From: an uncultured cyanobacterium
GTDB taxonomy: Bacteria; Cyanobacteriota; Cyanobacteriia; Cyanobacteriales; CAWUOF01
DNA length: 64,000 nt
Direction: 5' to 3'
Assembly: GCA_963744145.1 (NCBI GenBank)
Contig: CAVUSO010000001.1
Coordinates: 3,680,001 to 3,744,000, forward strand
In this document: positions 1-26,505 of the stretch, one piece after another
Layout of the letters: each line of letters starts with the position of its first letter
How positions within the stretch are numbered: the first letter of the stretch is position 1
Position numbers and translations under genes: made by a program
Notes under the pieces: model-generated
Seen by the model: only the letters and a program-made list of their open reading frames with translations
Databases searched by the model: none
What the model was told of the DNA's origin: nothing

Positions 1-2
1 GA

Positions 3-104: not shown

Positions 105-323
105 AGAATTGGTATTACTCGGTGACCAACGCTTATCGCAACCATTGCAATTCTGGTTAGGATAGCATCTTGTCATGGATAATCATTAGAGCTATTTATT
201 TGATGACTAATGCTAATTGTGACTATCAACAGCAGTGCGATCGCTCATAAATTTTCCCAGGATTTAAGCATGGTAAATCAAAATGTATGTTAAACTAAAA
301 ATTAGTCTTTTTCTTTATTTAAT

Positions 324-650
324 ATGATACTGAAAGAATTAGAGCATCAACTGCTAGCCTTATCTGATCATGAACAAGCTCAAGTTGTACAACTTCTATC
401 TCAAGGCAAAATCACTCTCGGACGTGGGATTGAAAAAACGACTGGTGTTTGTGGTGGTAGTGCCTGTATTGCGGGAACTCGCAGTACCGTTTGGGGGTTG
501 GTAGAAGCTCGTCAGATTGGATATAGTGAAGCTGATTTACTAATTAGCTATCCATCTCTATCTGCAACTGATTTGGCAAATGCTTGGGCTTATGCTGAAG
601 CTTTTTCCCAGGAAATTGAAACAGAAATTCGGGAAAATGCCCAAGACTAG
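324..650 (+). CDS. DUF433-domain antitoxin (last ~5 codons replaced at a junction; cognate toxin absent)
   Basis: GVCGGSACIAGTR..YPSLS..DL motif; near-identical to 7257, 15302, 37434. Confidence 0.8.
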   Translation: MILKELEHQLLALSDHEQAQVVQLLSQGKITLGRGIEKTTGVCGGSACIAGTRSTVWGLVEARQIGYSEADLLISYPSLSATDLANAWAYAEAFSQEIETEIRENAQD

Positions 651-797
651 AATATATTGGTATAGAGACGATTTGAGCGATCGCATTATTATCTAAAACA
701 ATATATAAAGATTTATGACAATATCGGTTGAAATTGGATAAATGTTGGGTTATTTTCTAGCCATCAAATCTTGTTTATATAAAATATCAGGGTAATT

Positions 798-1214
798 ATG
801 GCAAGGCTAGTTCTACAAGATCAGAATAAAAGGGTCAACTTAGACTGGTGGGTATTAGTTCTCGGTGGGATGGTTTTGTGTGGCAATGGATTAGGGACAC
901 AGAGGGCGATCGCCGCTAATGGTGTTCCTAGTGTAATTGCACAACAAACAGAAAATGATTCCACAGATAAAACTAATGCGGATCGCCTTTTGCAAGAAGG
1001 AGAACAGCTATATAAACAGCATTCAGTAGAATCTTTAAAAGAAGCTCTGGCCAAATGGAAAGCAGCAGGAGAGTTGTATCATCGTATAGGCGATCGCGCT
1101 GGTGAAACCGATCCCCTCACTCATCTCGGTTTAGTTTACTCAGAATTGGGGGGAAAAGCAGAAAACCATAAAATACTACAATCAGTCCTTGCCCCTCAGT
1201 CAGGCTGTGGGTGA
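798..1214 (+). pseudogene. Truncated, frameshifted N-terminus of the TPR-CHAT gene (signal region + one TPR unit)
   Basis: Near-identical to starts of 11924 and 17280; frame lost at the G/A run ~1147-1157; similarity ends at GGTGATCGC ~1211. Confidence 0.85.
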
Positions 1215-1415
1215 TCGCCCTCAACTCATCTCAATTTAGGTTTATGATCGCGATCGCACTCAGGTATTTTTAGTTTAAGCGATCATCGTCAATTATTTTG
1301 ATGATAGCGATCACGGTGAGAGACTATAATAGAAGAACAAAGATGAGCATCTAGATAATTGGCAGAAATGACTAGAAGTAGGTATAATGGATCTAAAATT
1401 ATTCAGATTTAGCTT

Positions 1416-1649
1416 ATGACGGTAGCTCAATTGAGTGGAAACTATGAAATCGAGATTCCGATAGCAGTGCGAGAACTATTGAATCTGAAACCGGGTGATT
1501 CTCTACAAGTAAAAGTAGTGGATGGCCATGTGGTGATGGTGCCAATTCCCAGCCACACTTCCAACTTGTTTGGAAAGCATAAGCACCTCTGGCAGGGAGT
1601 GGATGCTGTTGCCTATATTCGTCAGGAACGTGAGTCATGGCGCGATTAG
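1416..1649 (+). CDS. AbrB/MazE/SpoVT-family antitoxin
   Basis: IEIPIAVRELLNLKPGDSL motif; overlaps PIN gene. Confidence 0.85.
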   Translation: MTVAQLSGNYEIEIPIAVRELLNLKPGDSLQVKVVDGHVVMVPIPSHTSNLFGKHKHLWQGVDAVAYIRQERESWRD

Positions 1650-2083
1650 AAGACCTGGAGGGTGTTAATGTTGCCTTGGACAGTGTGATTTTTATTTATG
1701 CCCTAGAAGGAAATCTAGAATTTGGTCAACTAGCACGACAAATGTTGGAGATGATAGAACAGCGGAAATGCCAAGGGTTTGCCTGTGACTTGGTAATAGC
1801 TGAATTAATGGTTAAGCCATTGCGTCAAGGATATCCCGAAATTGCCGAAGAATATGCTAGAGATTTGCCATCTTTTCCTAATCTAAAGTTTTGCTCTATA
1901 ACTCAGAAGATTGTTATTGGGGCAGCTCGTCTGCGTGGTAATAGTAATCTGGGTTTGATTGATGCTTTGCATTTGGCGACTGCTGTAGAATTTGGATGTA
2001 CGGTTTTTCTGACTAATGATGCGGCTCTTCGTCACCCCGATGTAAGGTTAGATATTTGGATGCTTGGAGATATTAACAGTTGA
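1637..2083 (+). CDS. VapC/PIN-domain toxin, apparently intact
   Basis: VALDSVIFIY, AEL, DALHLATA, FLTND acidic PIN motifs. Confidence 0.85.
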   Translation: MARLEDLEGVNVALDSVIFIYALEGNLEFGQLARQMLEMIEQRKCQGFACDLVIAELMVKPLRQGYPEIAEEYARDLPSFPNLKFCSITQKIVIGAARLRGNSNLGLIDALHLATAVEFGCTVFLTNDAALRHPDVRLDIWMLGDINS

Positions 2084-2281
2084 TTTTCCTAGCTCTTTTA
2101 CGATTATTCCGATCGCCCGATCGCCACGAAAAAGATTAAGTTAATTATAGGATAGCTGGGAGCGATCGCTGTGAAAAAGATAGTAATTAGATATTTTTGC
2201 CCTGGTTGCTCAAGAGGAAATAAGGTTTAAAATCTAAGCATCGATAAATATATAAAGACTCATCCTATTATAGGACATAGA

Positions 2282-2461
2282 AACCTCAAGAATTATTAGA
2301 TTTTAGTGCTAATCGTCAAGCACTTAATAGTAATTCTCATCTTAATCAATACCAAATTATTCATTTAGCCACCCACGGTTTTGTTGATACCGAACATCCA
2401 GAACTCTCTGGAATACTTTTATCTTTAGTAGATCAAGAAGAAAACTATGAAAACGGTTACT
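2282..2461 (+). pseudogene. Isolated internal fragment of the CHAT domain (HLATHG region)
   Basis: Near-identical to ~14027-14206 and ~20476-20655. Confidence 0.85.
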
Positions 2462-2665
2462 CGGTGACCAACGCTTATCGCAACCACTGCAATTCTGGTT
2501 AGGATAGCATCTTGTCATGGATAATCATTAGAGCTATTTATTTGACGACCAATGCTAATTGGGACTGCCAACAGCAGTGCGATCGCTCATAAATTTTCCC
2601 AGGATTTAAGCATGGTAAATCAAAATGTATGTTAAACTAAAAATTAGCCTTTTTCTTTATTTACT

Positions 2666-2922
2666 ATGACACTGAAAGAATTAGAGCCTCAACTGCTAGC
2701 CTTATCTGATCATGAACAAGCTCAAGTTGTACAACTTCTATCTCAAGGCAAAATCACTCTCGGACGTGGGATTGAAAAAACGCCTGATGTTTGTGGTGGT
2801 AGTGCCTGTATTGCGGGAACTCGCAGTACCGTTTGGGGTTGGTAGAAGCTCGTCAGATTGGATATAGCGAAGCTGATTTACTCATTAGTTATCCAGCTCT
2901 ATCTGCAACTGATCTGGCAAAT
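2666..2922 (+). pseudogene. DUF433 antitoxin copy, frameshifted and truncated
   Basis: ATG 2666; G-run one base shorter at ~2835; homology stops at GGCAAATG 2923. Confidence 0.8.
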
Positions 2923-2923
2923 G

Positions 2924-2999
2924 ACATTTCTCCATCAGCCGCAACTAAATCAATTTCAAAAAATAGCTCTCCCATCTCGCCAAAGCACCCATTAATCAT
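2924..2999 (-). pseudogene. 5' fragment of clan AA aspartyl protease gene
   Basis: Matches 8317-8392. Confidence 0.75.
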
Positions 3000-3314
3000 A
3001 GAGTACCGCAAGCTCCAGTTTCATTGAGACGGTGAATCCCGATCATCCCACGGGGATACTTCTCACGAGCTTTTTGAACAGCAATTTCCTCATCGCGATC
3101 GATGAAATAGTCTCCACTGTTTGGCTCAATCACGATCAACCAGTTGTAATGATGATCTATTAGTTCAGGACTAACCAAGCGTAAAAACTTCCCGATAACG
3201 CTGACAGCGGGCATCTTTTTCAGATTTAAGCCTAGCTAAGTCTTCTGGTGATCTCCTAAATTCAGGAAATAACCTACCTCGACGATGAGGGCGATTTGAT
3301 GTGGTTTGAGTCAT
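2996..3314 (-). pseudogene. Small partner of aspartyl protease (DUF5678-like), frameshifted
   Basis: MTQTTSNRPHRRGRLFPE.. start 3314, +1 shift near 3185, continues as SPELIDHHYNW..GDYFID. Confidence 0.65.
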
Positions 3315-3534
3315 TGCTCGAATTTGTATTCAACTAGATCCAATTATATCTGCCATATTCCTAAGCATACAAGTATCCTTAAATTCGGCGATCGCATGAT
3401 ATTAATACCATAAACTATTAAAGAACTCTATTATAACACATCTGACGCCTTGTTCAGCAGTTGGCAAAGTCTATACACCTCGTCAGCATATACCTTAAAT
3501 GATTACGATACTAAAGGCTGACTATACCTACGCA

Positions 3535-3900
3535 TTACAACTCATTGATGGTCACTACACCACCTTCGGTGAACTGAATGATAAGTTCTTGATCGTTTAG
3601 CAGAGCAGTTCCCACTAAGGGTCGTCTTCCTGTAGCAATTACATAAACTTCTCTCTCTTCCCCGTCCCAGATGACAACTGCTTCATGGACTGGTAATAAA
3701 ACCTCGCGGTTGTCTGCCAAGTTTGCTGGGAGATCGTATAGGAAAGGTAGTCTCAATAATGAAACAGTTTCTGAAGGCAAACAAAGATGTCCAGTAAATC
3801 CAGTATCAATGACGAATTCAATCGGTATGCTTGAGCCGTTGAAGAGCAGAAATGTCAACGTGACGATTGCGTGTCTATCAGTCACAATTCCGGAAATCAC
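3535..3900 (-). CDS. Clan AA (retropepsin-like) aspartyl protease
   Basis: VIDTGFTG catalytic motif; PLVGTALL. Confidence 0.85.
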   Translation of the reverse strand: MISGIVTDRHAIVTLTFLLFNGSSIPIEFVIDTGFTGHLCLPSETVSLLRLPFLYDLPANLADNREVLLPVHEAVVIWDGEEREVYVIATGRRPLVGTALLNDQELIIQFTEGGVVTINEL

Positions 3901-4169
3901 TGGTAGACACGCTCCATGATGCCACCGAATGACACAGCTACATTGTACCCAATTCGGATACCGAAGAGACGGGCATTTGGATGTTTGGCGCTGAGTGATC
4001 GGGCTGCTTTTAACCCAGTTTCATCTATTTCGTAGTCTCCTGATTCAAAGTCAATAATGACCATTTTACCGATATTTTCGTCAATTTCTACTTGTTGGCG
4101 GATGGTGCTTTCATACAATTTCTTGGCTCGTTTTCCAACTTCTTCGCGACTTAAAAGAATTGCTTGCAT
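3897..4169 (-). CDS. Small partner protein of aspartyl protease (DUF5678-like)
   Basis: GKMVIIDFESGDYEID..RIG motif; 4-bp overlap with protease. Confidence 0.7.
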   Translation of the reverse strand: MQAILLSREEVGKRAKKLYESTIRQQVEIDENIGKMVIIDFESGDYEIDETGLKAARSLSAKHPNARLFGIRIGYNVAVSFGGIMERVYQ

Positions 4170-4237
4170 CGTCTAACCTCCGCTCGCTATGCTGACTTTT
4201 ATTAACTTCTTTATCATATCTTACGGATCAACAAGAA

Positions 4238-4308
4238 TCGCACATTCAACGGTAGATGGTTTCAATTTCTTGAAATGCGGGTGGTTGGATCAGAATTTGA
4301 TAACTCAT
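4238..4308 (-). pseudogene. RelE/ParE-like toxin remnant
   Basis: MSYQILIQPPAFQEIETIYR* overlapping the antitoxin stop; early TGA then truncation. Confidence 0.6.
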
Positions 4309-4571
4309 CGACGGGGAGGAATGTTGAACTGCTGCTGTAGCGCGGTCATGGCTGGATCTGCTGGAATACCTTCACCTCGATCAAAGCTTTCTAGTCCTTT
4401 GCGGATACCGATGATGGCTTCAAGGTAGTCGATTCTTTCTAGCAGTTGTTCGTAGGTATTGAGTTGGTGGTATGGAGACGATTTGAGCGATCGCATCAAG
4501 CTAAGAAGATCGACGAGCTGTTCGTTAGGGGTGCTATCGATTTCTTGGATCAGGAGTTCTTTGATGGTCAT
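4305..4571 (-). CDS. Putative antitoxin (DUF2281-like N-terminus; IRKGLESFDRGEG C-terminus)
   Basis: 88-aa ORF coupled to ParE-like remnant. Confidence 0.65.
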   Translation of the reverse strand: MTIKELLIQEIDSTPNEQLVDLLSLMRSLKSSPYHQLNTYEQLLERIDYLEAIIGIRKGLESFDRGEGIPADPAMTALQQQFNIPPRR

Positions 4572-4770
4572 TGCAGCATCGGTGGTCGGATTGATACTTT
4601 GATTATAACGAGCGTCATCGCCTTTTATTTTGTACCGGAGTTCTTAATTTCTGGGGAATCGCTCTTTGATTTGAGGCGATCGCTACCCAGAAACAAGAAA
4701 CAGCGATCGCTCATCATACTGCTTGGTATTTGTCCGGAGTTGCGATTACCCTTTATGATTAGTGGTGCGA

Positions 4771-4965
4771 TTACCGATGATCTTGTCCGATTTGCTCCAA
4801 CGATTTATTAGACCTCCGCTTGATTGGTAGTGTCACAACACTTTGCTGATGAGCATTCTGCTTATTTCGCAAATCGTTAAATATTGCATCCATATCGTAG
4901 TCAAAGGATCTGGCATATTCTTCTCTGTATTTGTGAATTTCTTCGATAATTTTGTCTTTCCACAT
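4771..4965 (-). CDS. Small antitoxin-like protein found downstream of PIN genes
   Basis: MWKDKIIEEIHKYREEYARSFDYD motif; copy at 25802. Confidence 0.65.
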   Translation of the reverse strand: MWKDKIIEEIHKYREEYARSFDYDMDAIFNDLRNKQNAHQQSVVTLPIKRRSNKSLEQIGQDHR

Positions 4966-4983
4966 GGGCGATTCTCCTGTAAA

Positions 4984-5077
4984 TTAATATCCGAGCAACT
5001 GATATGGTGTATAGATAACTGGTAACTCGTAACCTAAGCTAGCACTAATTTGTGATAGCTTTTTCTGAATTTGGGCA
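4984..5077 (-). pseudogene. 3' remnant of a PIN-domain toxin
   Basis: AQIQKKLSQISASLGYELPVIYTPYQLLGY*; cut at the MITE end. Confidence 0.6.
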
Positions 5078-5209
5078 TAGGGTTCAGTTAATTGTAGGGG
5101 TGAAGTATTCGGGCGACAATTGAGCGATCGAACCAATAATATTAGATCCGAATGCTTCACCCTTCTTCTAAAGCCGAGATATCCAAAAATATTCTTAACT
5201 GAGCCCTAT
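5077..5209. mobile_element. MITE-like element with ~15-bp terminal inverted repeats and internal hairpin
   Basis: ATAGGGTTCAGTTAA...TTAACTGAGCCCTAT; internal GGGTGAAGTATTCGG/CCGAATGCTTCACCC. Confidence 0.7.
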
Positions 5210-5214
5210 TGAAC

Positions 5215-5870
5215 TATAAATAGGCGATCGCGGAGCTGATAATTGGTGGTACGATCGCTTTTGCTAAAAATCCTACTCAATTTTCATGAATGTTGGAGTA
5301 AACATAACCGATGGGAGAATGGCGATCGCATGATGTTAATACCAATATGCTTTCTGTTTCCCGATGCCAAAATTCAACTTTGCATATTCCCAAATAATTG
5401 AACTGGGATTGAGTTGGTGGTATGGAGACGATTTGAGCGATCGCATTATCTAAAACAATAGATGAAGCTTTATGACAATATCGGGTGAAATTGGATAAAT
5501 GTTGGGTTATTTTCTAGCCATGAAATCAAATCTTGTTTATATAAAATATTAGGGTAATTATGGCCAGGCTAGTTCTACAAGATCAGAATAAAAGGGTCAA
5601 CTTAGACTGGTGGGTATTAGTTCTCGGTGGGATGGTTTTGTGTGGCAATGGATTAGGGACACAGAGGGCGATCGCTGCTAATGGTGCACCCAGTCTAATT
5701 GCACAACAAACAGAAAATGATTCCACCGATAAAGCTAATGCTGATCGCCTTTCGCAGGAAGGAGGACAGCTATATAAACAGCATTCAGTAGAATCTTTAA
5801 AAGCAGCTCTAGCCAAATTGAAAGCAGCAGGAGAGTTGTATCATCGTATAGGCGATCGTGCTGGTGAAGC
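5215..5870 (+). repeat. Spacer + TPR promoter + TPR N-terminus module, repeated at ~11581-12235 and ~16938-17580 (partial at 665, 8814, 21097)
   Basis: Near-identical sequence on direct comparison. Confidence 0.9.
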
Positions 5871-6000
5871 TATTATCCTCAACAATCTCGGTGGTGTTTA
5901 CGATGATTTGGGGGAAAAGCAGGAAGCAATCAAATCCTACAATCAGTCCTTGCCCCTCAGTCGGGCGGTGGGCGATCACTCTCAGTTCATCTCAATTTAG
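5560..6000 (+). pseudogene. Truncated TPR-CHAT gene (signal region + one TPR unit)
   Basis: Homology to 17280 ends at GGCGATCAC ~5971. Confidence 0.85.
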
Positions 6001-6142
6001 GTTTATGATCGCGATCGCACTCAGGTATTTTTATCTAAAGCGATCGCCCACTCAGCTCAGAGAATAAAAACTTATGAGAAATTGTTTGATATTTGCGGCA
6101 AAGTGCGATAAACTTAACTTACTAACTTGGTTTTTAAGGAAT

Positions 6143-6259
6143 ATGGAAACTGTAAATATTGATGAGGCTAAAACGAATCTCTCAGCACTATTATCGCGGG
6201 TAGAGATTGGAGAAGAAATCATTATTTCAAAAATTGGTATCTGTAGGATCAAAGAATAA
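6143..6259 (+). pseudogene. Truncated Phd/YefM antitoxin
   Basis: METVNIDEAKTNLS; matches 9464 only up to ~6240. Confidence 0.75.
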
Positions 6260-6314
6260 AAGATTTATGATGTTTGAGAAAGACTCAATTATTAAAAACT
6301 CTTTCAGCTAAATA

Positions 6315-6542
6315 ATGACCCAAATTACTACGACTGAATTACCCCAAATGCTCCAGACTCTACTGATAGAGGTCGAACGGACCAAAACTTCCCTAACCGT
6401 TATCCATGAAGGAAAACCATTAGTAATTATTTATCCTGCTACCACCACCTCACGCCCCACATTTGGTGCAATGAAAGGAAGTGGTGAAATATTAGGGGAT
6501 TTAATCGCTCCTGTAGCGGAAGTCTGGGAGGTTTTAGAATGA
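6315..6542 (+). CDS. Phd/YefM-family antitoxin
   Basis: HEGKPLVII, FGAMKGSGEILGDLIAP; ATGA overlap with PIN; copy at 36040. Confidence 0.8.
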   Translation: MTQITTTELPQMLQTLLIEVERTKTSLTVIHEGKPLVIIYPATTTSRPTFGAMKGSGEILGDLIAPVAEVWEVLE

Positions 6543-6766
6543 AACTTTTACTCGATACCCATATTTGGCTTAGGTATTTACTAGGTGACCAACGCTTATC
6601 GCAACCATTGCAAACGGCGATCGCCGATCCTAACACTGAAATTTGGCTGAGTCCAACTAGCATTTGGGAGACACTCATCCTTGCAGAAAAAAGACGGATA
6701 GGGTTAAAATTAGCTACGGTTGATGCCAACATTACAGGTAATTCAGCCCTACAAACACTCAGTTAG
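6539..6766 (+). pseudogene. VapC toxin with in-frame internal deletion
   Basis: LLLDTH..SIWE joined to LATVD; 75 aa, lacks DPxDR segment. Confidence 0.75.
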
Positions 6767-6795
6767 GCAAACTTCACCCGTTACAATATTTAATT

Positions 6796-7046
6796 ATGTC
6801 TGCTAAAGATATATTTCACAACTATCAGCAATCTCTGAATTTCATATAGCCGTTGGTCAATTTCTGAATTATCAGGTAGCCTTAGATAAATTAGACCTAG
6901 AATGGATACTGTATTTAGCTATACCCACGGATATTTATCAAGATTTTTTTACAGATTCATTTGTGCAAGAGGTGGTTAAACGATTTCAAATTAAGTTGCT
7001 GGTTTTTCATATTCAGAAACAGGAGATAGTGCTATGGATAGATTAG
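6796..7046 (+). pseudogene. xisH: xisH-family copy with 169-bp internal deletion
   Basis: Equals 36521-36940 minus 36547-36715. Confidence 0.85.
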
Positions 7047-7151
7047 ATTATCGCGAATTGGTAAAAAAAATTATCCAACAACACGCCAAGGAGCGATCAA
7101 AAGAAGACCCAAATCAAACTCAGATTGTTTTTGATGAGGAACGCGATCGCT
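7034..7151 (+). pseudogene. xisI: xisI-family 5' fragment
   Basis: Matches 36928 up to the HIP1 site at ~7144. Confidence 0.8.
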
Positions 7152-7256
7152 ACTTATGCCAACAGCAGTGCGATCGCTCATAAATTTTCCCAGGATTTAA
7201 GCATGGTAAATCAAAATGTATGTTAAACTAAAAATTAGCCTTTTTCTTTATTTACT

Positions 7257-7598
7257 ATGATACTGAAAGAATTAGAGCATCAACTGCTAGCCTTATCTGA
7301 TCATGAAAAAGCCCAAGTTGTACAACTTCTATCTCAAGGCAAAATCACTCTCGGACATGGTATTGAAAAAACGCCTGGTGTTTGTGGCGGTAGTGCCTGT
7401 ATTGCGGGAACTCGCAGTACCGTTTGGGGGTTGGTAGAAGCTCGTCAGATTGGATATAGCGAAGCTGATTTACTCATTAGCTATCCATCTCTATCTGCAA
7501 CTGATTTGGCAAATGCTTGGGCTTATGCTGAAGCTTTTCCCCAGGAAATTGAAACGGAAATTCGGGAAAATGCCCAAGAGATGTACGAGGATTCATAG
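7257..7598 (+). CDS. DUF433-domain antitoxin
   Basis: TPGVCGGSACIAGTR motif. Confidence 0.85.
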   Translation: MILKELEHQLLALSDHEKAQVVQLLSQGKITLGHGIEKTPGVCGGSACIAGTRSTVWGLVEARQIGYSEADLLISYPSLSATDLANAWAYAEAFPQEIETEIRENAQEMYEDS

Positions 7599-7601
7599 TC
7601 G

Positions 7602-7721
7602 ATGGCGCGTCTCTATGCCGATGAACAATATCCTTATCCTGTGGTAGAATTACTGCGAATTTTAGGGCATGATGTCTTAACTGTTCAAGAAGCAAATAAC
7701 TGTATAACAACCTGTAGCTGA
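7602..7721 (+). pseudogene. DUF5615/PIN-like toxin 5' fragment
   Basis: MARLYADEQYPYPVVELLRILGHDVLTVQEA then unrelated tail and stop. Confidence 0.75.
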
Positions 7722-7733
7722 ATCTGGTAGGTT

Positions 7734-7940
7734 TTAGAATGAAACTTTTACTCGATCCCCTGTCTCAAATTCAGCAATAGCTTCTTGTGCTAGGGCTTCT
7801 AGCTTACCATCAGCAATATCTTTCTCTAATTATTTATCCCAGCGTTGATAATCTAGATCGGCAAACCACTCTAAGAGTTTTCGATACTCATCTGGCGGTA
7901 GCTGGAGAATGGCAGATTCAATTTGCTTAAGTGTTAGCAT
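7734..7940 (-). pseudogene. Antitoxin-like gene copy with nonsense codon
   Basis: Matches 15658-15834; CAA>TAA at ~7830. Confidence 0.65.
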
Positions 7941-8023
7941 TGGAATTTAATCAATTTAATTCTGAGCATATTATAGCTTTTCTGTGATCATCGTGACTGT
8001 CAAAGCAGATCGCCCTTTAATCT

Positions 8024-8392
8024 TTATCCCAAAGTCAACACTCCGGCTGTAAAATTCACAGCTAACGGCAGCATTTTCAACCACTGCAAACCTAAAATCG
8101 ACTCAGGAATTCCCGCTCCTACTAACACAGGGATTACATCCTCTTGTTCATTCAATACAACTTTTCCCTCAAAAATATCAAAATACTCCTCACCCCGTGC
8201 TGTTTGCATAACTCGTTCGCTTTCAAGCATCAACCAACCCAAACTGAAAGCATCTTGAGTATCCAGTGCTAACCAACCTGTTGTAAACCCAGTATCTAAT
8301 AACACTTCAATCGAGAACATTTCTCCATCAGCGGCAACTAAATCAATTTCAAAAAATAGCTCTCCCATCTCGCCAAAGCACCCATTAATCAT
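8024..8392 (-). CDS. Clan AA aspartyl protease
   Basis: LLDTGFT motif; ILGLQWL. Confidence 0.85.
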   Translation of the reverse strand: MINGCFGEMGELFFEIDLVAADGEMFSIEVLLDTGFTTGWLALDTQDAFSLGWLMLESERVMQTARGEEYFDIFEGKVVLNEQEDVIPVLVGAGIPESILGLQWLKMLPLAVNFTAGVLTLG

Positions 8393-8707
8393 AGAGTACC
8401 GCAAGCTCCAGTTTCATTGAGACGGTGAATCCCAATCATCCCACGGGGATACTTCTCACGAGCTTTTTGAACAGCAATTTCCTCATCGCGATCGATGAAA
8501 TAGTCTCCACTGTTTGGCTCAATCACGATAAACCAGTTGTAATGATGATCTATTAGTTCAGGACTAACCAAGCGTAAAAACTTCCCGATAACGCTGACAG
8601 CGGGCATCTTTTTCAGCTTTAAGCCTAGCTAAGTCTTCTGGTGATCTCCTAAATTCAGGAAATAACCTACCTCGACGATGAGGGCGATTTGACGTGGTTT
8701 GAGTCAT
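8389..8707 (-). pseudogene. Protease partner (DUF5678-like), same frameshift as 2996 copy
   Basis: Near-identical to 2996-3314. Confidence 0.65.
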
Positions 8708-8821
8708 TGCTCGAATTTGTATTCAACTAGATCCAATTATATCTGCCAATTTTCCAAGCATACAAGTATCCTTAAATTAGGCGATCGCATGATATTAATA
8801 CCATAAACTATTAGGGTAATG

Positions 8822-9175: not shown

Positions 9176-9187
9176 GCGATCGATTAC

Positions 9188-9300
9188 AATTATGCTTTTC
9201 CAAAGAGACAAGATCAGCTTAGGAAAGGCTAGTGAATTGATCGGAATACATCGAATGGAATTTCAGAAATTGCTAGCCGAGCGAGATATTTGTGTTCATT
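9188..9300 (+). pseudogene. Internal fragment of UPF0175 antitoxin
   Basis: Matches ~16170-16283. Confidence 0.75.
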
Positions 9301-17279: not shown

Positions 17280-20200
17280 ATGGCAAGGCTAGTTCTACAA
17301 GATCAGAATAAAAGGGTCAACTTAGACTGGTGGGTATTAGTTCTCGGTGGGATAGTTTTGTGTGGCAATGGATTAGGGACACAGAGGGCGATCGCCGCTA
17401 ATGGTGCACCCAGTCTAATTGCACAACAAACCGAAAATGATTCCACCGATAAAGCTAATGCTGATCGCCTTTTTCAAGAAGGAGAACAGCTATATAAACA
17501 GCATTCAGTAGAATCTTTAAAAGCAGCTCTGGCCAAATTGAAAGCAGCAGGAGACTTGTATCATCGTATAGGCAATCGTAAAAGTGAAGCCACTACCCTC
17601 AACAATATTGGTAAAGTTTACGATGATTTGGGGGAAAAGCAGGAAGCAATCAAATACTATAATCAGTCCTTGCCCCTCTATCGGGTAGTGGGCGATCGCG
17701 ATGGTGAAGCATCTACTCTCAACAATCTCGGTAGTGTTTACTCAGATTTGGGGGAAAAGCAGGAAGCAATCAAATCCTACAATCAGTCCTTGCCCCTCTT
17801 TCGGGCTGTGGGTGATCGCAAAGGTGAAGCTGTTACCCTCAACAATCTCGGTAAAGTTTACTCAGATTTGGGGGAAAAGCAGGAAGCAATCAAATCCTAC
17901 AATCAGTCCTTGCCCCTTTTTCGGACTGTGGGCGATCGCAAAGGTGAAGCTGTTACCCTCAACAATCTCGGTAAAGTTTACGATGATTTGGGGGAAAAGC
18001 AGGAAGCAATAAAATCCTACAATCAGTCATTACCCCTCTTTCGGGCGGTGGGCGATCGCGCTGGTGAAGCCACTACCCTCAACAATCTTGGTGCTGTTTA
18101 CTCAAATTTGGGAGAAAAGCAGGAAGCAATCAAATCCTACAATCAGTCCTTGCCCCTCTTTCGTGCTGTGGGCGATCGCGCTGGTGAAGCTGTTACCCTC
18201 AACAATCTTGGTGCTATTTACGATGATTTGGGGGAAAAGCAGGAAGCAATCAAATCCTACAATCAGTCCTTGCCCCTCAGACGGGCGGTGGGCAATCGCG
18301 ATGGTGAAGCCCGTACCCTCAACAATCTCGGTGAAGTTTACTCAGATTTGGGGGAAAAGCAGGAAGCCATCAAATACTTAAATCAGTCATTGCCCCTCTT
18401 TCGTGCCGTGGGCGATCGCGCTGGTGAAGCTGTTACCCTCAACAATCTTGGTGCTATTTACGATGATTTGGGGGAAAAGCAGGAAGCAATCAAATCCTAC
18501 AATCAGTCCTTGCCCCTCAGACGGGCGGTGGGCAATCGCGATGGTGAAGCCCGTACCCTCAACAATCTCGGTGAAGTTTACTCAGATTTGGGGGAAAAGC
18601 AGGAAGCCATCAAATACTTAAATCAGTCATTGCCCCTCTTTCGTGCCGTGGGCGATCGCGCTGGTGAAGCTGTTACCCTCAACAATCTCGGTAAAGTTTA
18701 CTCAGATTTGGGGGAAAAGCAGAAAGCAATCGAATCCTACAATCAGTCATTGCCCCTCTTTCGTGCCGTGGGCGATCGCGCTGGTGAAGCATCTACCTTC
18801 AACAATCTTGGTGGTGTTTACTCAGATTTGGGGGAAAAGCAGGAAGCCATCAAATACTACAATCAGTCCTTGCCCCTCTTTCGGGCGGTGGGCGATCGCG
18901 CTGGTGAAGCTGTTACCCTCACCAATCTCGGTGTTGTTTACAATGATTTGGGGGAAAAGCAGGAAGCAATCAAATACTATCATCAGTCCTTGCCCCTCAG
19001 TCGGGCGGTGGGCGATCGCGCTGGTGAAGCTGTTACCCTCACCAATCTCGGTGTTGTTTACAATGATTTGGGGGAAAAGCAGGAAGCAATCAAATACTAT
19101 CATCAGTCCTTGCCCCTCAGTCGGGCGGTGGGCGATCGCGCTGGTGAAGCTGTTACCCTCAACAATCTCGGTGTTGTTTACTCTTCTTTGGGGGAAAAGC
19201 AGGAAGCAATCAAATACTTAAACCAGTCCTTGCCCCTCAGACGGGCGGTGGGAGATCGCGCTGATGAAGCTAATACTCTTTTTAATCTAGCTTATGTAAA
19301 ACGGAGTCAGGGTAATCTCCAAGAAAGCCTGATTCTTATGGAAGACTCTCTACACATTATCGAAGACCTTCGCACTAAAATTGCTAGTCAAGACCTTCGT
19401 ACTTCTTACTTTGCTACCAAACAAGATTATTATGAATTTTATATTGACTTACTAATGGAATTGCATAAACAACAACCTACCCAAGGATATAACATCAAAG
19501 CCTTTGAAGCTAGCGATCGCTCCCGTGCCCGTTCATTAATCGAACTCCTAACAGAATCTAGAGCTAAGATTACTACTGGCATTGACCCTAAACTATTAGA
19601 ACAAGAACAAGATATTCAGAATCAAATTGATGCTTTTGAAAAGAATAGTCAAAAAATTCTGAATGGTAATCCCACACCAGAACAAAAAGCTAAACTCCAA
19701 CAAGAGAAAATTAATCTCTCACAACAATATAATAATATTCGCGACCAAATTCGGGTTAGTAGTCCTGCTTATGCTCAGTTAAAATATCCTGACCCTCTTA
19801 CTCTTGCTGATGTTCAAAAAAAATTACTTGATGAGCATACGGTTTTACTTCAATATTCTCTTGGTAGCGATCGCAGTTATCTCTGGGCAGTCACGCAAAC
19901 AGAAATTAGTAGTTATAAATTACCTAAACAAAGTGAAATTGAAAAATTAGCTAAGGAGTTTAGGTATAAACTAACCGACCCTGCTACCAGAAAATTACCC
20001 ATAGAAATCAGGAGAAGTTCTCAACAACTTAGTGATATTATTATCAAACCAGTCTTAGAAAAGATTGGGAATAAACGATTATTAATAGTCGCCGATGGAG
20101 CCTTACAATATATCCCATTTAGTGCCTTAAATATTCCGGGGAAATCCACTAATGAATATACTCCCCTCATTACTGAACATGAAGTAATTAACTCTCCATC

Positions 20201-21002
20201 TGTCTCTACTATCGGGATTATTAAATCCGACCCGAAACGGAATAAAACCGCTCCAAAACCATTAGTAGTATTTGCTGATCCGGTATTTACTCCCAATGAT
20301 GAACGCTTTGCTAAAACTGTTGCTCCTCAAGCTAGTCATAATATCAGCGATCGCGGTTTACCAATCGAGGCACAACAATTAGAAAAAGCCGCATTAACAG
20401 AAGGAATTAAATGGAAAAGATTACCTTTTACCAGAGATGAAGCTGATGGGATTGTGAGAATCATCCCCAATAGTCAACCTCAAGAATTATTAGATTTTCG
20501 TGCTAATCGTCAAGCACTTAATAGTAATTCTCATCTTAATCAATACCAAATTATTCATTTAGCCACCCACGGTTTTGTTGATACCGAACATCCAGAATTC
20601 TCTGGAATCCTTTTATCTTTATTAGATCAAGAAGGAAACTATGAAAACGGTTACTTAACATTAAATGATATATTTAATCTGGACTTACAAGCAAATTTAG
20701 TAGTATTAAGTGCCTGTCAAACTGGAGTAGGAAAATTAATTAAAGGAGAGGGATTAGTAGGATTAACTAGGGGGTTTATGTATGCTGGTACTCCGCGAGT
20801 GTTAGTATCGTTATGGAGCATTAATGATCAATCTACATCGGAGTTAATGGTGAAATTTTATCAGAAGACGCTGAAGGAAAAGTTAACACCCGTAGCAGCA
20901 TTAAGAGCAGCTCAATTAGAAATGTGGCAACAAGGAGATTGGAAGAAATGGAAATCACCCTATTACTGGGCTGCTTTTACTATGCAAGGTGATTGGAATT
21001 AA
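17280..21002 (+). CDS. TPR-CHAT protease; 14 TPR units + capping unit
   Basis: 120-bp repeats 17580-19260; HLATHG / LSACQTG. Confidence 0.92.
17580..19260 (+). repeat. 14 tandem 120-bp TPR-coding repeats
   Basis: 18181-18420 identical to 18421-18660; 18901-19020 identical to 19021-19140. Confidence 0.95.
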
Positions 21003-21374
21003 TCCGATCAATATTTTGCATTTATTGTTGGGAAAATTAATTGAGATTAGTAGTTAGAATTGCGATCGCGTTAATCAAATCAGGATGATTGAGCAGGCGA
21101 TCGCATCATGTAAAAATATAAAGATTTATTACAATATTAAATCACATTGGATAAATGTTGTGCTATTTTCTAGCTATCAGATCAAATCTTTATCTAAAAT
21201 ATTAAGGTAGCTATGGGAAGGATAGTTTGAAAGAATTAGCCTATTAATCGAACATTGCCCCTGGTCTATCCGGTGGGCGATCGCCCAGTCGAAACCCACT
21301 ATATAGACTAAAAAGCTTACTATATCTAGTCAATCAATGGTAAAATTATTTAAGAAAAAATTTGATTATGGTTT

Positions 21375-22070
21375 ATGAAAAGGAAAATATCTATTATTTT
21401 ACTCTTACAGATATTGATAATTCCCAATTTTGTACCTGTAGCATTTGCAAACGACAGTATTTCAAATACTAGCCCAAAACAACTTAATAATGATCCTAAT
21501 GATACTACAAATCCTACAACCTCTCAGCCGGATCATGATAGTAAGGATAGTCCCAGAGGAGCTTGTAGTAAAGAGGAAAAAGAAATTATTCCTTTAGTTC
21601 CAAAAGCAAAGGTTGTATATACTATTTTGGGAAATCCAAAGGTTTTCTTTTATGTTCCTGAAGGAATGAGTAAAAATATTAAGTTTTCTCTATCAAACGA
21701 GGATGAAGGAGTGGTTTATCAAACTACTTTTGATACTCCTAATCAAGCGGGAATAATTAGTGTTGAGCTTGCGAGTGTTCCGGAGAAAAATTTGCAAATT
21801 GGAAAACAGTATAAATGGGTGTTTCAAATAGTTTGTAATGAAAATGACCCTAGTGGAAATCCATTTATAGAAGGAGTGATTGAAAGAAAAGAAATTTCCC
21901 AGGATCTAAGTAAAAATCAGCTCTGGTACGATGCTTTATTAGAAACTGCTCGTCTACATCGTTCTGCTTCTAATGATCCTAAAGTTACTCAAGATTGGGA
22001 GGTTTTGTTGGATTCACTAGGATTTAAGGCGATCGCTAAAGAGCCTTTTGTAGAGGTGTTAAAAAAATAA
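21375..22070 (+). CDS. DUF928-domain exported protein
   Basis: Signal peptide; RGAC, P.VFFYVP, GIIS, Y.W, WYDAL motifs. Confidence 0.8.
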   Translation: MKRKISIILLLQILIIPNFVPVAFANDSISNTSPKQLNNDPNDTTNPTTSQPDHDSKDSPRGACSKEEKEIIPLVPKAKVVYTILGNPKVFFYVPEGMSKNIKFSLSNEDEGVVYQTTFDTPNQAGIISVELASVPEKNLQIGKQYKWVFQIVCNENDPSGNPFIEGVIERKEISQDLSKNQLWYDALLETARLHRSASNDPKVTQDWEVLLDSLGFKAIAKEPFVEVLKK

Positions 22071-22091
22071 ATTTTATTTCGGAATAGAGTT

Positions 22092-25000
22092 ATGATTACT
22101 AAGATAATTAAAAAATTTAGGGTAAGATTTTATAGGGCAAATTTAATTTTTTCCTTTTGGTTATGGGTTTATATCGGGATAAGTTTATTATTGGTTGATA
22201 GACCTATTATAAAAGTGGCGATCGCACAGGAACCAGAAAAAGTAATTGCGGATCGTTTATACAAGGAAGCAGAAGAAACCTATAAAAAACAAACTAGAGA
22301 ATCCCAAAAAGAAGCTCTGGAAAAGTTTAATGAAGCCAAAGAAATTTATCATCGGTTGGGTGAGGGTAAAAGTGAAGCTACTATTACTAAAAATATTGGT
22401 AATATTTATTCATATTTAGGGGAAAAACAAAAGGCTTTAGATTATTATAATTTATCTTTAAGTCTGGCTCGTAGGATAGGGGATAAATCTCTTGAATCGA
22501 TTAATCTTAATAATATTGGTTTGGTTTATAAGTATTGGGGAGAAAGACAGAAGGGACTAGAATATTTTCATCAGTCTTTGGTAATTAATCAAGCTATTGC
22601 CGATCGCCTTGGTGAAGCGATCAGTTTTAATAATATTGGGTTGATTTATTCCGCTTTAGGAGAAAAGAAAAAAGCCCTGGAATACTATAATCTATCTTTG
22701 CCCCTCTATCGGACTGTGGGCGATCGCGAGGGTGAGTCTAATTTGTTTAGTGACATTGGGACGGTTTATGCGGATTTGGGAGAGCAACAGAAAGCTTTAG
22801 ATTATTATCATCAGTCTTTGTTTTTGAAACAGACCATTCACGATTTTAGGGGTGAAGCTAATACTCTCAATAATATTGCTAATACTTACTATTCTTTAGG
22901 TAATCAAAAAAAGGCTTTAGATTATTATCAGCGGTCTTTAACTCTCAAACGTACCGTTGGCGATCTCCCCGGTCAAACTACTACTTTGAATGGTATTGGG
23001 TTAGTTTATTTAGATTTGGGAGAACAAGAAAAAGCTTTAGATTACTTTCACCAATCTTTAGACATTTCTGTGCAAATAGGCGATCGCCCTAGACAATCTT
23101 CTGCTCTGATTAGTATTGGTAGTGTCTATAGTAATTTGGGGGAAAGTCAAAAAGCTTTGGAATATTATAATCAAGCTTTACCGATTAAACGTGCTGTTAG
23201 CGATCGCTCAGGTGAAGCTAATACTTTGATTGGGATTGGTAATGTTTATAAAGATTTAGGTAAGAATCAGGAAGCGTTATTATATTATAATCAGGCTTTA
23301 GTTCTTAAACAAGCTGTTAGCGATCCTAATGGTGAAGCTAATACTCTGATTGGAATTGGTAACGTTTATAATAAATTAGGAGAACAGAAAACTGCTTTAG
23401 CGTATTATAATCGGGCTTTACCTCTGAAACGAATTGTATCCGATCCGCAAGGTGAGGCTAAAATTCTGAATAATCTGGGATTTGTCTATGCGGATTTAGG
23501 AGAAATACAGAAAGCTTTAAATTATTACAATCAGTCCCTAGTTATTGCCCGTGCTGGAGGAGATTATTTTGATGAAGCTAATACTCTTTTAAATTTGTCT
23601 ATTTTAAAGGAAAAGGAAGGGAATCTTCAAGAAAGTTTATCTGATATTGAAAGTGCTTTAAAAATTATTGAGAATCTTCGCACTAAAATTATTAGTCAAG
23701 ACCTCCGGATTTCTTATTTTGCTACAGTGCAAGACTATTATAAATTTTATATTAATTTATTGATGAAGTTACATAAACAAAAACCAAATCAGGGTTTTAA
23801 TATTAAAGCTTTGGAAGTTAGCGATCGCTCTCGTGCCCGATCTTTAATTGAATTACTAGCAGAATCTAAGGCTAAGATCCATACAGGAATAGATCCGAAA
23901 TTATTAGAGGAAGAACAAAATATTCAAGCTCAGATAGATAACTTTGAGAAAAATAGTCAAGAAATTCTAATTAATCATCATACTCCTGAAAAAGAAGCAG
24001 AATTAAAACAACAAGAAATAAATCTTATTCAGGAATATAATAGGATTCGTAATAAGATTCGGATCACTAGTCCTCGTTATGCTGATTTAAAATATCATCA
24101 ACCGCTGATGTTATCAGAAATTCAACAATATTTGGATGATCAGACAATTTCATTGCAATATTCTTTAGATACAGAGGTTAGTTATCTTTGGTTAGTGACT
24201 AAAACAGAAGTTAATAGTTATGAGTTACCGAAACAAAAAGATATAGAAAAATTGGCTGAAAATTTTAGAAATGTATTAACTATAGCTAGTCAAAGAGATT
24301 TATTAAAATTGGTGATGAATAATAGTAATGCTCTCAGTAATGTAATTCTTAAACCAGTTGCAGAAAAATTAGGTAAAAAGCGTTTATTAATTGTTCCAGA
24401 TGGAGCATTGCAATATATTCCTTTTAGTGCTTTAACTGTACCAGGAAAACCTTTTCTTCCTTTGATAGCTGAACATGAAATAATTATGTCCCCATCCGTA
24501 TCTACTATAGGGATGATTAGGAAGTATAGCAATAAAAGTATTGCTACTCAGCAGTTAGCTATTTTTGCTGATCCGGTTTTTAGTGTTGATGATGAGCGTT
24601 TTGGGAAAGCTATAGTTAGTAAAAATTATGATTCTCGCGATCGCAGTCTGTCAAGGGAAACAAAAGGATTAGAAATAGCATCATTATTATTAGGAATTAA
24701 ATGGGGGAGATTACCTTTTACTAGAAAAGAAGCGAATGGGATAATAACTTTAACTTCTAGAGAGCAGAGTCAAGAGTATTTAGATTTTGATGTTAATCGT
24801 GATGCAGTAAATAATCCTAATTTGAATCAATACCAAATTATTCACTTTGCCACTCATGGATTTATTGATACAGAACATCCTGAGTTATCAGCAATTATTT
24901 TATCTTTAGTGGATCAAAAAAAGAATTATCAAAATGGTTATTTAAGATTAAATGATATATTTAACTTAAATTTGAATGCCAAATTAATAGTTTTAAGTGC

Positions 25001-25280
25001 TTGCGAAACGGGATTAGGAAAGGAGATTAAGGGGGAAGGGATAGTGGGATTAACAAGGGGTTTTATCTATGCTGGTGCTCAACAAGTATTAGTATCTTTA
25101 TGGAGTATAAATGACAAATCAACTGCGGAATTCATGGTAAACTTTTACAGGAAAATACTGAAAGATAAGTTAACTGTATCCGCAGCATTAAGGGCAGCCC
25201 AATTAGAGATGTGGCAAGAGGGCAAATGGAAATCACCCTACTACTGGGCTACTTTTACGATACAAGGTGACTGGAATTAA
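22092..25280 (+). CDS. TPR-CHAT protease, divergent paralog; 10 TPR units + capping unit
   Basis: HFATHG / LSACETG; hydrophobic N-terminal segment. Confidence 0.92.
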
Positions 25281-25340
25281 TCACTAAATGCTAGGTGTGC
25301 TAAAGATACAGAGGTAGAAGTAGCTGCTGAGTTAGTTGAG

Positions 25341-25602
25341 TTACAGAGGAATGTTGAACTGTTGCTGTAGTGCGGTCATGGCTTGATCTGCTGGAATACC
25401 TTCACCTCGATCAAAGCTTTCTAGTCCTTTGCGGATACCGATGATGGCTTCGAGGTAGTCGATTCGTTCTAGCAGTTGTTCGTAGGTATTGAGTTGGTGG
25501 TAGGGAGACGATTTGAGCGATCGCACCAAGCTAAGAAGATCGGACGAGCTGTTCGTCAGGGGTGCTATCGATTTCTTGGATCAGGAGTTCTTTGATGGTC
25601 AT
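25341..25602 (-). pseudogene. Frameshifted copy of the 4305 antitoxin
   Basis: Extra G at ~25543 versus 4512; 3' end clipped. Confidence 0.7.
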
Positions 25603-25801
25603 CGCGGCATCTGGGGGAGGATTGATACTTTGATTATAACGAGTGTCATCGCCTTTTATTTTGTAGCAGGGTTCTTAATTTCTGGGGAATCGCTCTTTCA
25701 TTTTAGGCGATCGCTGCTCAGAAACAAGAAACAGCGATCGCTCATCGTACTGCTTGGTATTGGTCTGGGGTTGCGATTACCCTTTATGGTTAGTGGTGCG
25801 A

Positions 25802-25996
25802 TTAACGATGATCTTGTCCGATTTGCTCCAACGATTTGTTAGACCTCCGCTTGATTGGCAGTGTCACAACATTTTGCTGATGAGCATTCTGCTTATTTCG
25901 CAAATCGTTAAATATTGCATCCATGTCGTAGTCAAAGGATCTGGCATATTCTTCTCTGTATTTGTGAATTTCTTCGATAACTTTGTCTTTCGACAT
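25802..25996 (-). CDS. Small antitoxin-like protein (copy of 4771)
   Basis: Near-identical translation; PIN remnant upstream at 26015-26108. Confidence 0.65.
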   Translation of the reverse strand: MSKDKVIEEIHKYREEYARSFDYDMDAIFNDLRNKQNAHQQNVVTLPIKRRSNKSLEQIGQDHR

Positions 25997-26107
25997 GGCC
26001 GATTCTCCTGTAAATTAATATCCGAGCAACTGATATGGTGTACAGATAACTGGTAACTCGTAACCTAAGCTAGCACTAATTTGTGATAGCTTTTTCTGAA
26101 TTTGGGC

Positions 26108-26262
26108 ATAGGGTTCAGTTAATTGTAGGGGTGTTCGCGTAGCGTGCCGTAGGCATAGTATTCGGGCGACAATTGAGCGATCGAACCAATAATATTATAT
26201 CCGAATGCTTCACCCTTCTTCTAAAGCCGAGATATCCAAAAATATTCTTAACTGAACCCTAT
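26108..26262. mobile_element. MITE-like element (copy of 5077) carrying a ~22-bp nested insertion
   Basis: Perfect 15-bp TIR ATAGGGTTCAGTTAA/TTAACTGAACCCTAT. Confidence 0.7.
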
Positions 26263-26505
26263 TGAACTATAAATAGGCGATCGCGGAGCTGATAATTGGT
26301 GGTACGATCGCTTTTGCTCAAAGTTGTGCTAAATCTTAATGAATTTTGGGTTGAGGGAGTAAATCTAAACGATCTGAGAATGGCGAGTGATCGCTGATGA
26401 TTGGTGACGTGATCGCTTTTAGTCAAAGTTGTGCTAAATATCAATGAATGTTGGGTTGAGAGAGTAAGCCACCAGCATCTTAACCATGTGCCAAGTTTCT
26501 TCTAC

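Follow-up and report, generated by a model that had tools for sequence, protein, structure and literature searches.

A duplicated mosaic of toxin–antitoxin and TPR-CHAT modules in a cyanobacterial chromosome, with HIP1 at a minority of its joints

We analysed a window of 64,000 nucleotides from the chromosome of an uncultured cyanobacterium (GenBank assembly GCA_963744145.1, contig CAVUSO010000001.1, hereafter C1), corresponding to C1:3680001–3744000 within a single chromosomal contig of 7.63 Mb and 39.4% GC; window coordinates are used unless C1 is given. The subject is an island in the first 26.4 kb, composed of toxin–antitoxin (TA) modules and genes for TPR-CHAT proteins, together with the 8-bp palindrome HIP1 (GCGATCGC), which lies at some of the joints between its pieces. 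It is known that the deletion at the smt locus is HIP1-associated, and an earlier note on this DNA had proposed that HIP1 is a crossover point at which cassettes are shuffled into an integron-like array. The island proved to be real and extreme but ordinary, a duplicated TA/TPR-CHAT variable island in which HIP1 lies at a minority of the joints, at a frequency largely explained by its abundance.

Self-BLAST showed that about a dozen block families with 85–99% identity recur in different orders from approximately −1.8 kb to 26.4 kb, with 45 high-scoring segment pairs (HSPs) outside the repeat arrays at ≥84% identity and ≥60 bp, bearing out the claim of a small set of pieces rejoined in varying orders, many of them also present at 35.9–38.8 kb. 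The recurring blocks are DUF433, PIN, XisH/XisI, Phd, a DUF5615 remnant, and the TPR-CHAT promoter with its gene, and among those common to 35.9–38.8 kb, 14584–15660 matches 36716–37792 at 97.5%. The least decayed TA block (35891–38818) contains an antitoxin with a truncated PIN gene, XisH, XisI and DUF433, followed by DUF5615/DUF433 on the minus strand, and it is the source or sister of the blocks at 6.2–7.8 kb and 14.6–15.7 kb. Both 6241–7750 and 14563–15660 are decayed copies of 35958–37927, and because an identical 169-bp deletion in XisH is present in the 6.8-kb and 14.5-kb copies, blocks that were already damaged were duplicated again. Furthermore, two head-to-tail tandem copies, 11521–16876 and 16877–21004, define a unit of 5356 bp with one novel joint (11521–12843 matches 16877–18199, and 12301–14556 matches 18737–21004). 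The mosaic extends 1.8 kb upstream of the window, where a copy of 1703–2459 (99.3% identical) is separated from its own continuation (115–582, equal to 2457–2923) by an insertion sequence (IS) of IS630-like type. Small scars include a 36-bp PIN piece (2457–2492), a 180-bp CHAT piece (2282–2461), a 48-bp piece (11310–11357), and DUF5615 pieces of 57 bp and 31 bp within 5321–5402, each 100% identical to its source (37961–38019 and 38163–38193). Duplicated modules have thus arisen and decayed in a birth-and-death process, and they do not form an ordered cassette array.

Homology switches were judged from sequence views, and a switch within 2 bp of HIP1 was counted as flush. The earlier note had placed at least seven switch points on HIP1; five of the seven were flush in at least one comparison, and two were merely near. 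Exact GCGATCGC was confirmed at 677, 5437, 11803, 17159, 4487, 21097, 5322, 9936, 11688, 17044, 37962, 6040, 9361, 35949, 4676, 11522, 16878, and 7143, while 1211–1218 and 5971–5978 are one-base variants. At five sites in the region homology ended flush with GCGATCGC, with unrelated flanks beyond.

At site alpha (677, 5437, 11803, 17159, 21097, 10051, 4487, and 25517), HIP1 is followed by either of two unrelated right flanks, the TPR-CHAT promoter or the sequence that follows 4487, 10051 and 25517, and the switches are flush; at 21097 the left flank differs too. The recombinant joint at 9894–10188 combines the spacer block (9894–10059) with a sequence equal to 4455–4624 and 25485–25655 (10019–10188) through a 41-bp overlap ending in the HIP1 of site alpha at 10051–10058. 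Of the site family proposed as the joint between antitoxin and TPR promoter, 10051 and 21097 show flush switches, but the joint between DUF433 and the promoter lies at 646–658, 19 bp before the HIP1 at 677. Site beta (5322–5329, also 9936, 11688, 17044, 37962, 3388, and 8781) has a right flank common to all seven and a left flank of two unrelated kinds that switch flush with HIP1; the DUF5615 remnant begins flush with it at 5322, 9936, 11688 and 17044, as at 37962, in agreement with the switch from spacer to DUF5615 described previously. Site gamma (6040–6047, also 9361–9368 and 35949–35956) is a clean and flush three-way swap, as had been claimed, in which the left flank is common to 9361 and 35949 and the right flank to 6040 and 9361; the sequence shared with the left parent is 6 bp long (GCGATC). 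The other three-way swap, at site delta (4676–4683, also 11522–11529 and 16878–16885), likewise held and was flush, the right flank being common to 11522 and 16878 and the left flank, of only ~30 bp, to 4676 and 11522; the joint of the 5356-bp tandem unit at 16877 is at this site. At site epsilon (1211–1218 and 5971–5978), a mutated HIP1 of a TPR unit is joined to DNA that normally follows the CHAT gene, so that both TPR truncations are flush on HIP1 variants as stated earlier. The two truncations are one event that was later duplicated, and the traceable right parent (C1:5902 and C1:2538) is without HIP1.

The truncation of XisI, by contrast with what had been claimed, is not on HIP1: its joint at 7157/7158 falls between two HIP1 sites, 7 bp after the first and 13 bp ahead of the second, and only TGC is shared. 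The joint at 5215 is the end of a dispersed repeat, 9 bp before a HIP1. HIP1 or a part of it was present in both parents at 6040, 10059 and 11811, with overlaps of 6 bp, 41 bp and 28 bp, respectively, and in only one traceable parent at 1218/5977; at the remaining sites no second parent was found. The possibility that HIP1 is born at the joint as a repair scar was rejected, as HIP1 at the traceable joints comes from a parent, and no new HIP1 arose in the deletions at 7157 and 6240. In a separate observation, the parents of the joint at 6240/6241 (compared with 9562 and 35958) each carry HIP1 or a 7-of-8 variant ≤3 bp from the break and the product has neither, which looks like a single case of HIP1 loss at a joint.

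In a fine census of the region (HSPs ≥30 bp, ≥88% identity, sharp ends), 5 of 56 junction classes were flush with HIP1 and 51 were not, compared with a mean of 1.5 and a maximum of 5 in the slid control, where 0.9% of the windows reached 5; such slid-window fractions are not probabilities, and the junction classes share history and are not fully independent. In a coarse census (≥60 bp, ≥84%), 7 of 46 were flush, where the slid control averaged 2.9 and 4.6% of its windows reached 7, and after removal of TPR-array and IS ends 4 of 38 were flush against 2.2 (18% reached 4). Under a uniform local null, P ranged from 0.005 to 0.12 according to the distance cut-off. The local excess is thus modest, about three-fold; the breakpoints are enriched for HIP1 relative to local density in the fine census, but the list of joints named earlier was selective.

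HIP1 itself is abundant in this genome and exceptionally dense in the island. The chromosome carries 7801 exact sites (1.02/kb), and 1–26400 contains 73 (2.8/kb), making it the densest of 290 bins of 26.4 kb (bin mean 26.9, standard deviation 7.6). Eighteen of these 73 lie inside 120-bp TPR units, where they encode Gly-Asp-Arg, and when the TPR arrays and later block copies were removed, 25 sites remained in 13,954 bp (1.79/kb). Because HIP1 in the three TPR-CHAT genes (11924–25280) is nearly always in one reading phase, encoding Asp-Arg after Gly or Ser (in TPR units, VGDR), coding accounts for part of the record local density.

For the genome-wide census, self-megablast gave 78,716 HSPs, from which the sharp ends of non-tandem repeats at depth ≤10 were taken. 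HIP1 was flush at 51 of 1589 repeat ends, 5.7 times the flank baseline and the commonest single word at repeat-block ends in the genome, while 353 other frequent 8-mers had a median flush ratio of 0.72 and a 95th percentile of 3.8. At the event level, 28 of 674 junction classes were flush, against a slid mean of 8.25 and a maximum of 21 (3.4-fold), with a sharp peak of 14 classes at offset 0 and 8 at +1 compared with 0–4 at every other single offset. When the island region was excluded, 26 of 638 were flush against 7.6 (110 slid windows, maximum 21). In the 28 flush classes, the flanks outside the homology had a median local score of 9 (maximum 18) against 8 for random pairs; since they align no better than random pairs, these classes are true breaks in homology. 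Among two-parent joints, HIP1 was in the overlap of 5 of 127; the overlaps of the others ranged from −3 to 46 bp and were of unrelated sequence, and joints without HIP1 had other overlaps (none to 46 bp) or coincided with IS or small-repeat ends. Among other abundant words, AATTTTAT was found at 7 classes against 1.8 and AAAAAAAA at 5 against 1.5, and a few abundant AT-rich words showed an event-level fold excess similar to that of HIP1. In a second HIP1-rich genome (1.66 HIP1/kb), of which 2.8 of 6.13 Mb were covered, the underpowered count was 1 of 44 flush against 0.46. The association of HIP1 with block ends in this genome is thus real, although small.

HIP1 accounts for 4.2% (28/674) or 3.9% (5/127) of the joints genome-wide and ~9% (5/56) locally, and for 3.4%, 8.8% and 13.5% of identical word pairs of 8, 10 and 12 letters, respectively, in non-repeated DNA. 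Because its joint share of ~4% matches its 3.4–8.8% share of identical 8- to 10-mer pairs, we infer that HIP1 probably acts as passive microhomology in ordinary duplication and deletion rather than as part of a dedicated recombination system. We propose the following scenario. The island would have grown by repeated segmental duplication of TA and TPR-CHAT modules, including the 5.36-kb tandem unit and the copies of the 35.9–38.8 kb block, and decay would have followed through many small deletions, one IS630-like insertion and insertions of dispersed repeats, so that gene fragments of 31 to 560 bp remain. The joints may have formed by ordinary exchange with short or no homology, such as replication slippage, template switching or unequal crossing-over. 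HIP1 would appear at some of them because, of the GC-rich 8-mers that unrelated pieces of the genome may have in common, none comes close to it in abundance, and it would be especially dense in the island since the TPR units encode it. The microhomology of 6, 28 and 41 bp in both parents at HIP1 joints is consistent with this scenario. The earlier proposal that HIP1 is a crossover point thus stands in part, in that several three-way swaps are flush with it, but its share of the joints is small, locally and genome-wide, and is roughly that expected from abundance.

Several observations weigh against a purely passive role, in addition to the shared history of the junction classes. The flush ratio of pooled non-HIP1 8-mers is ~1.0 at all abundances (200–2500 copies) against 5.7 for HIP1; a model proportional to abundance and fitted to HIP1 predicts, by our own arithmetic, ~1.4 for the most abundant other words; and no excess is seen for palindromic 8-mers other than HIP1 (0.74) or for GC-rich ones (0.76). 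At the joint 1218/5977 a single traceable parent carries HIP1, which suits a break at the site more than shared microhomology, and the HIP1-adjacent parental breaks at 6240/6241 also fit a break at HIP1. Together with the sharp peak at offsets 0 and +1, these results favour HIP1 as an active hotspot, whose palindrome or methylated form would be break-prone or Chi-like and would drive cassette shuffling beyond what abundance provides. In the excerpts available of the literature, Kamoku and Nielsen (2024) reported that HIP1 in homology arms increased integration up to 7-fold, and >100-fold if methylated, a transformation gain that was methylation- and homology-dependent and 'reminiscent of' Chi, and Elhai (2015) cited evidence for HIP1 in site-specific recombination in PCC 7002 and for insertion of the SDR5 repeat between the third and fourth bases of HIP1. 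However, HIP1 is found at only a small share of the junction classes, the share fits the passive expectation, a few AT-rich words match its fold excess at the event level, and a Chi-like stimulator is expected to place ends near the site, not flush with it. We therefore regard it as doubtful, if worth keeping in view, that HIP1 is an active hotspot, and equally doubtful that it is a preferred break-and-rejoin point for recombination through short homology in cyanobacterial chromosomes, over-used relative to other palindromic or GC-rich 8-mers, whose activity would show as cassette shuffling in islands such as this one. The opposite reading, that HIP1 at 2.8/kb is dense enough for a searcher to find several by coincidence and selection with no real association, draws on the loss of significance in the coarse local test without TPR-array and IS ends, on the two claimed joints of seven that lie 7–19 bp off HIP1, and on the partial census of the second genome, which is uninformative; it is largely refuted by the genome-wide census, in which the excess persists without the region and the flanks of flush classes resemble random pairs, as well as by the finer local census, and we consider it improbable.

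An integron-like or other site-specific cassette system acting at HIP1 would require a recombinase that has escaped recognition, working for example with the XisH and XisI of the island. In Anabaena, XisH and XisI help XisF to excise the fdxN element, the shuffled blocks contain three xisI and two xisH genes or fragments, and several HIP1 sites bound blocks on both sides. Against this, 51 of the 56 junction classes are off HIP1, the cassettes lie on both strands with their own upstream regions and are mostly fragments, and no attC-like site was found, though no formal search was made, while an Rfam scan of 1–40 kb gave nothing. No tyrosine recombinase was present among the 46 open reading frames (ORFs) of 1–40 kb or the 11 ORFs upstream, and a six-frame search of the whole genome for PF00589 gave only two matches (6.67 and 7.02 Mb), none within 2.9 Mb; the nearest resolvase-family match is 144 kb away. 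The absence of an integrase from the window, which the earlier note had reported, is thus correct, but its description of an integron-like array was not borne out, and such a system is very unlikely here. Equally unlikely is that the assembler mis-joined repeated blocks. The region is highly repetitive and public contigs (run X1) break at repeats, but the copies differ by 1–15% with copy-specific changes, as had been argued before, the chromosome is one contig, and X1 contigs cover 30 of 30 bins of 1–12000 and bridge joints without HIP1 (7875–8529 with 1 difference, 10091–10718 with 4 differences); X1 may be the source sample, and is then not independent.

Among the closest known systems is HIP1-associated deletion and illegitimate recombination in cyanobacteria, with the deletion at the smt locus and the cases of Robinson et al. 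(1997) and Akiyama et al. (1998), the latter two as cited in excerpts of Elhai (2015). It likewise has joints exactly on GCGATCGC, keeps one HIP1 in the product and needs no dedicated recombinase; in contrast, the present case concerns an island that occurs naturally in a chromosome, and HIP1 accounts for ~9% of its dozens of joints. The same excerpts describe HIP1 illegitimate recombination in PCC 7942 and in E. coli 'at a much lower efficiency' and, citing Robinson et al. (1997), excision that is about as frequent in E. coli as in Synechococcus. The link of HIP1 to deletion and illegitimate recombination is already in the literature, and what is added here is the genome-wide count (28/674); no genome-wide count of HIP1 junctions was found in the literature searched, which did not cover most subscription journals. 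Duplication and deletion through microhomology between short direct repeats (replication slippage, template switching), an idea cited by Xu et al. (2018) in the part available, which also shows HIP1 conservation and periodicity, resembles the island in its overlaps of 0–46 bp, local tandem duplication and decay to fragments. It differs in that here a noticeable part of the microhomologies is due to one 8-mer, whose copies in the chromosome number 7801.

Integrons (IntI, attI and promoterless cassettes flanked by attC) also form arrays of small, often TA, modules in varying order, whereas the island has no integrase nearby, both orientations, most joints off any common site, and mostly fragments. 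The attC sites are structured imperfect palindromes of roughly 60–140 bp, and the site proposed here is an 8-bp palindrome. Integron cassettes are mostly promoterless and in one orientation behind a common promoter, whereas here both strands carry genes (those at 3535–4169 and 8024–8607, for example, are on the minus strand) and the TPR-CHAT genes have been copied together with their upstream blocks. Variable islands that are TA-rich and of defence type, and that contain IS elements as well as small dispersed repeats, are known in filamentous cyanobacteria. The present island shares with them dense TA pairs (DUF433/DUF5615, MazE/PIN, Phd, UPF0175/DUF3368, and XisH/XisI), CHAT proteases, a STAND NTPase, and IS630 and IS110 elements nearby, and differs from them in its unusually many nested re-duplications and in having the highest HIP1 density of the chromosome per 26.4-kb bin.

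Gene content was determined by Pfam and NCBIfam scans of the 46 ORFs of 1–40 kb and the 11 upstream ORFs. The three full TPR-CHAT genes (11924–14554, 17280–21002, and 22092–25280) and the two truncated TPR N-termini (798–1214 and 5560–6000) are all on the plus strand. The small TA-type genes of 1–40 kb comprise five DUF433 genes, MazE/PIN, two truncated PIN genes, Phd, two XisH and three XisI genes, UPF0175/DUF3368, DUF5615, and two clan AA aspartic protease pairs; a DUF928 gene is present besides. The right end of the IS630-like element, whose 1.15 kb start ~1037 bp before the window, occupies 1–117; the element has HTH_23 and DDE_3 ORFs and a duplicated TA dinucleotide target on both sides, as expected of an IS630/Tc1-mariner family insertion, interrupts the second copy of block 1703–2923, and has 11 other copies of 1151–1191 bp with 90–99.7% identity. 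The first DUF433 block (149–646, plus strand, gene 324–650; self-BLAST and domain scan) recurs by self-BLAST at 2491–2923 (truncated), 7157–7750, 15127–15660, and 37259–37927. It is followed on the plus strand by a TPR-CHAT promoter block with the truncated N-terminal gene 798–1214 (658–1218, from sequence views), which begins 19 bp before the HIP1 at 677 and ends flush with the variant at 1211–1218, and by a MazE-PIN cassette (1219–2163; genes 1416–1649 and 1637–2083) with 93% identity to C1:5902–6846. A plus-strand string of scars at 2282–2923, consisting of a CHAT C-terminal fragment (2282–2461), a PIN fragment (2457–2492) and a truncated DUF433 (2491–2923), has none of its joints on HIP1.

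The block at 2924–3420 (minus strand) matches 8317–8813 at 98% and carries part of a pair encoding a small protein and a clan AA aspartic protease, with related pairs at 3535–4169 and 8024–8607. The next block, 4316–5296, matches 25346–26349 at 93% and includes a dispersed repeat of ~130 bp (5077–5214). The second copy of the spacer and TPR-CHAT promoter with a truncated TPR gene (5560–6000) spans 5215–6045 (plus strand), its spacer containing the 57-bp and 31-bp DUF5615 remnants, and is followed by the decayed plus-strand copy of the 35.9–38.8 kb TA block (6040–7750; self-BLAST and domain scan), which contains a Phd fragment (6040–6240), an antitoxin with a truncated PIN gene (6241–6821), and the DUF433 block (7157–7750). 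In 6801–7157 the start of XisH is fused to its 3′ part and to the 5′ part of XisI, and 282 bp are missing at 7157 relative to the copy at 14919–15202. Farther along the plus strand are a partial copy of the TPR-CHAT gene start (8803–9155, by self-BLAST) and an intact XisH-XisI pair (10355–11097, by domain scan). Tandem unit 1 (11521–16876, plus strand) carries a spacer, a promoter, the TPR-CHAT gene 11924–14554, XisI (14796–15128), DUF433 (15302–15643), and a UPF0175/DUF3368 pair (16096–16823), and tandem unit 2 (16877–21004, plus strand) carries a spacer, a promoter, and the TPR-CHAT gene 17280–21002, which has fourteen 120-bp TPR units, 10 of them with HIP1 encoding Gly-Asp-Arg. The last segment (21097–25280, plus strand) comprises a diverged promoter block that starts flush with the HIP1 at 21097 and is 78% identical to 5437–5574, the DUF928 gene (21375–22070), and the third TPR-CHAT gene (22092–25280).

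The dispersed repeat of ~110–140 bp (5077–5214 and 26157–26267) has >100 copies in the genome with 77–91% identity. It often forms regular arrays with a period of ~275–330 bp, as at C1:4232701–4234416, 2895444–2896103, and 7497499–7498792, and it resembles the small dispersed repeats of Nostocaceae, known through citations in the excerpts of Elhai (2015) and Xu et al. (2018). A second large TPR-CHAT cluster lies across the ends of the chromosome record (C1:1–22,556 and C1:7,624,740–7,634,654), with long arrays of 120-bp TPR units that are 72–85% identical to those of the window and with MazE-PIN blocks at C1:2538–2982 and C1:5902–6846 that are ~93% identical to 1219–2163.

At the left border of the island, in the 10 kb before the window (C1:3670001–3680200), enolase and a glyoxalase gene are neighbours of a MazF-like (MazF/PemK) toxin gene, a GIY-YIG gene, an IS110-family transposase, and two IS630-like elements, one of which truncates a PIN gene. 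From 26.5 kb onward the island gives way to ordinary housekeeping genes (peptidases, methyltransferases, hisS); a STAND NTPase gene follows, and beyond it the TA block of 35.9–38.8 kb. A SLOG-domain gene (33483–34196, minus strand) adjoins 34495–35889, which encodes a 464-aa protein with an N-terminal sigma-70 region 4-like helix–turn–helix and an NB-ARC/STAND NTPase domain, and the pair (33483–35889) looks defence-related; relatives in two metagenome loci (L014 and L015) likewise have the NTPase gene 1–3 kb from a DUF433 gene. The AstE/AspA-like (M14-type) gene at 26499–27639 has a second copy, 89% identical, at C1:5436669–5437809. Internal tandem or diverged repeats of 70–80% identity were seen at 62617–63662 (periods of ~220–450 bp) and 43668–44660 (600-bp offset). 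An Rfam scan of 1–40 kb and a tRNA scan found nothing.

A search of 31 genomes (the source and 30 relatives) with 26506–30914 gave nothing above 70% nucleotide identity beyond the source genome, and an exact 20-base pattern spanning site alpha had two matches in genome contigs, both by chance (20–22 bases). Among metagenome loci with relatives of the 113-aa DUF433 protein, 521 were confirmed and 80 of them kept, and the closest among those kept, L014 and L015, have ~83% DNA identity and block ends without HIP1 and are too diverged for joint calls. In the public runs, for which contigs were used, the proportion of sampled words present was 65% for X1, a soil metagenome, and 14% for X2, a relative; neither shows an alternative cassette order, which contigs cannot exclude. 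Candidate alternative joints in run contigs (1–12000) were explained by paralogous copies (7157 to 2491 with 207 letters between, and 11357 to 4316) and rejected. One X2 contig has 9188–9301, 112 other letters, and 11522–11593, the last match starting at site delta, a hint from a single contig.

According to the excerpts of the literature available, the function of HIP1 has been open since the 1990s, with recombination, DNA uptake (proposed by Rodriguez-Cruz et al., 2026), and chromosome structure all put forward. The census presented here quantifies the recombination idea for a single natural genome, in which HIP1 is ~3–6 times above local background at repeat-block ends. At the same time HIP1 explains only ~4% of the joints, roughly what its abundance predicts, which tempers readings of such mosaics as a HIP1 crossover system. 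Comparing the share of breakpoints with the share of word pairs is a simple test that is applicable across cyanobacterial strain sets. If HIP1 were truly a hotspot, this palindrome, a puzzle for 30 years, would have a part in genome plasticity in addition to the one reported for it in transformation.

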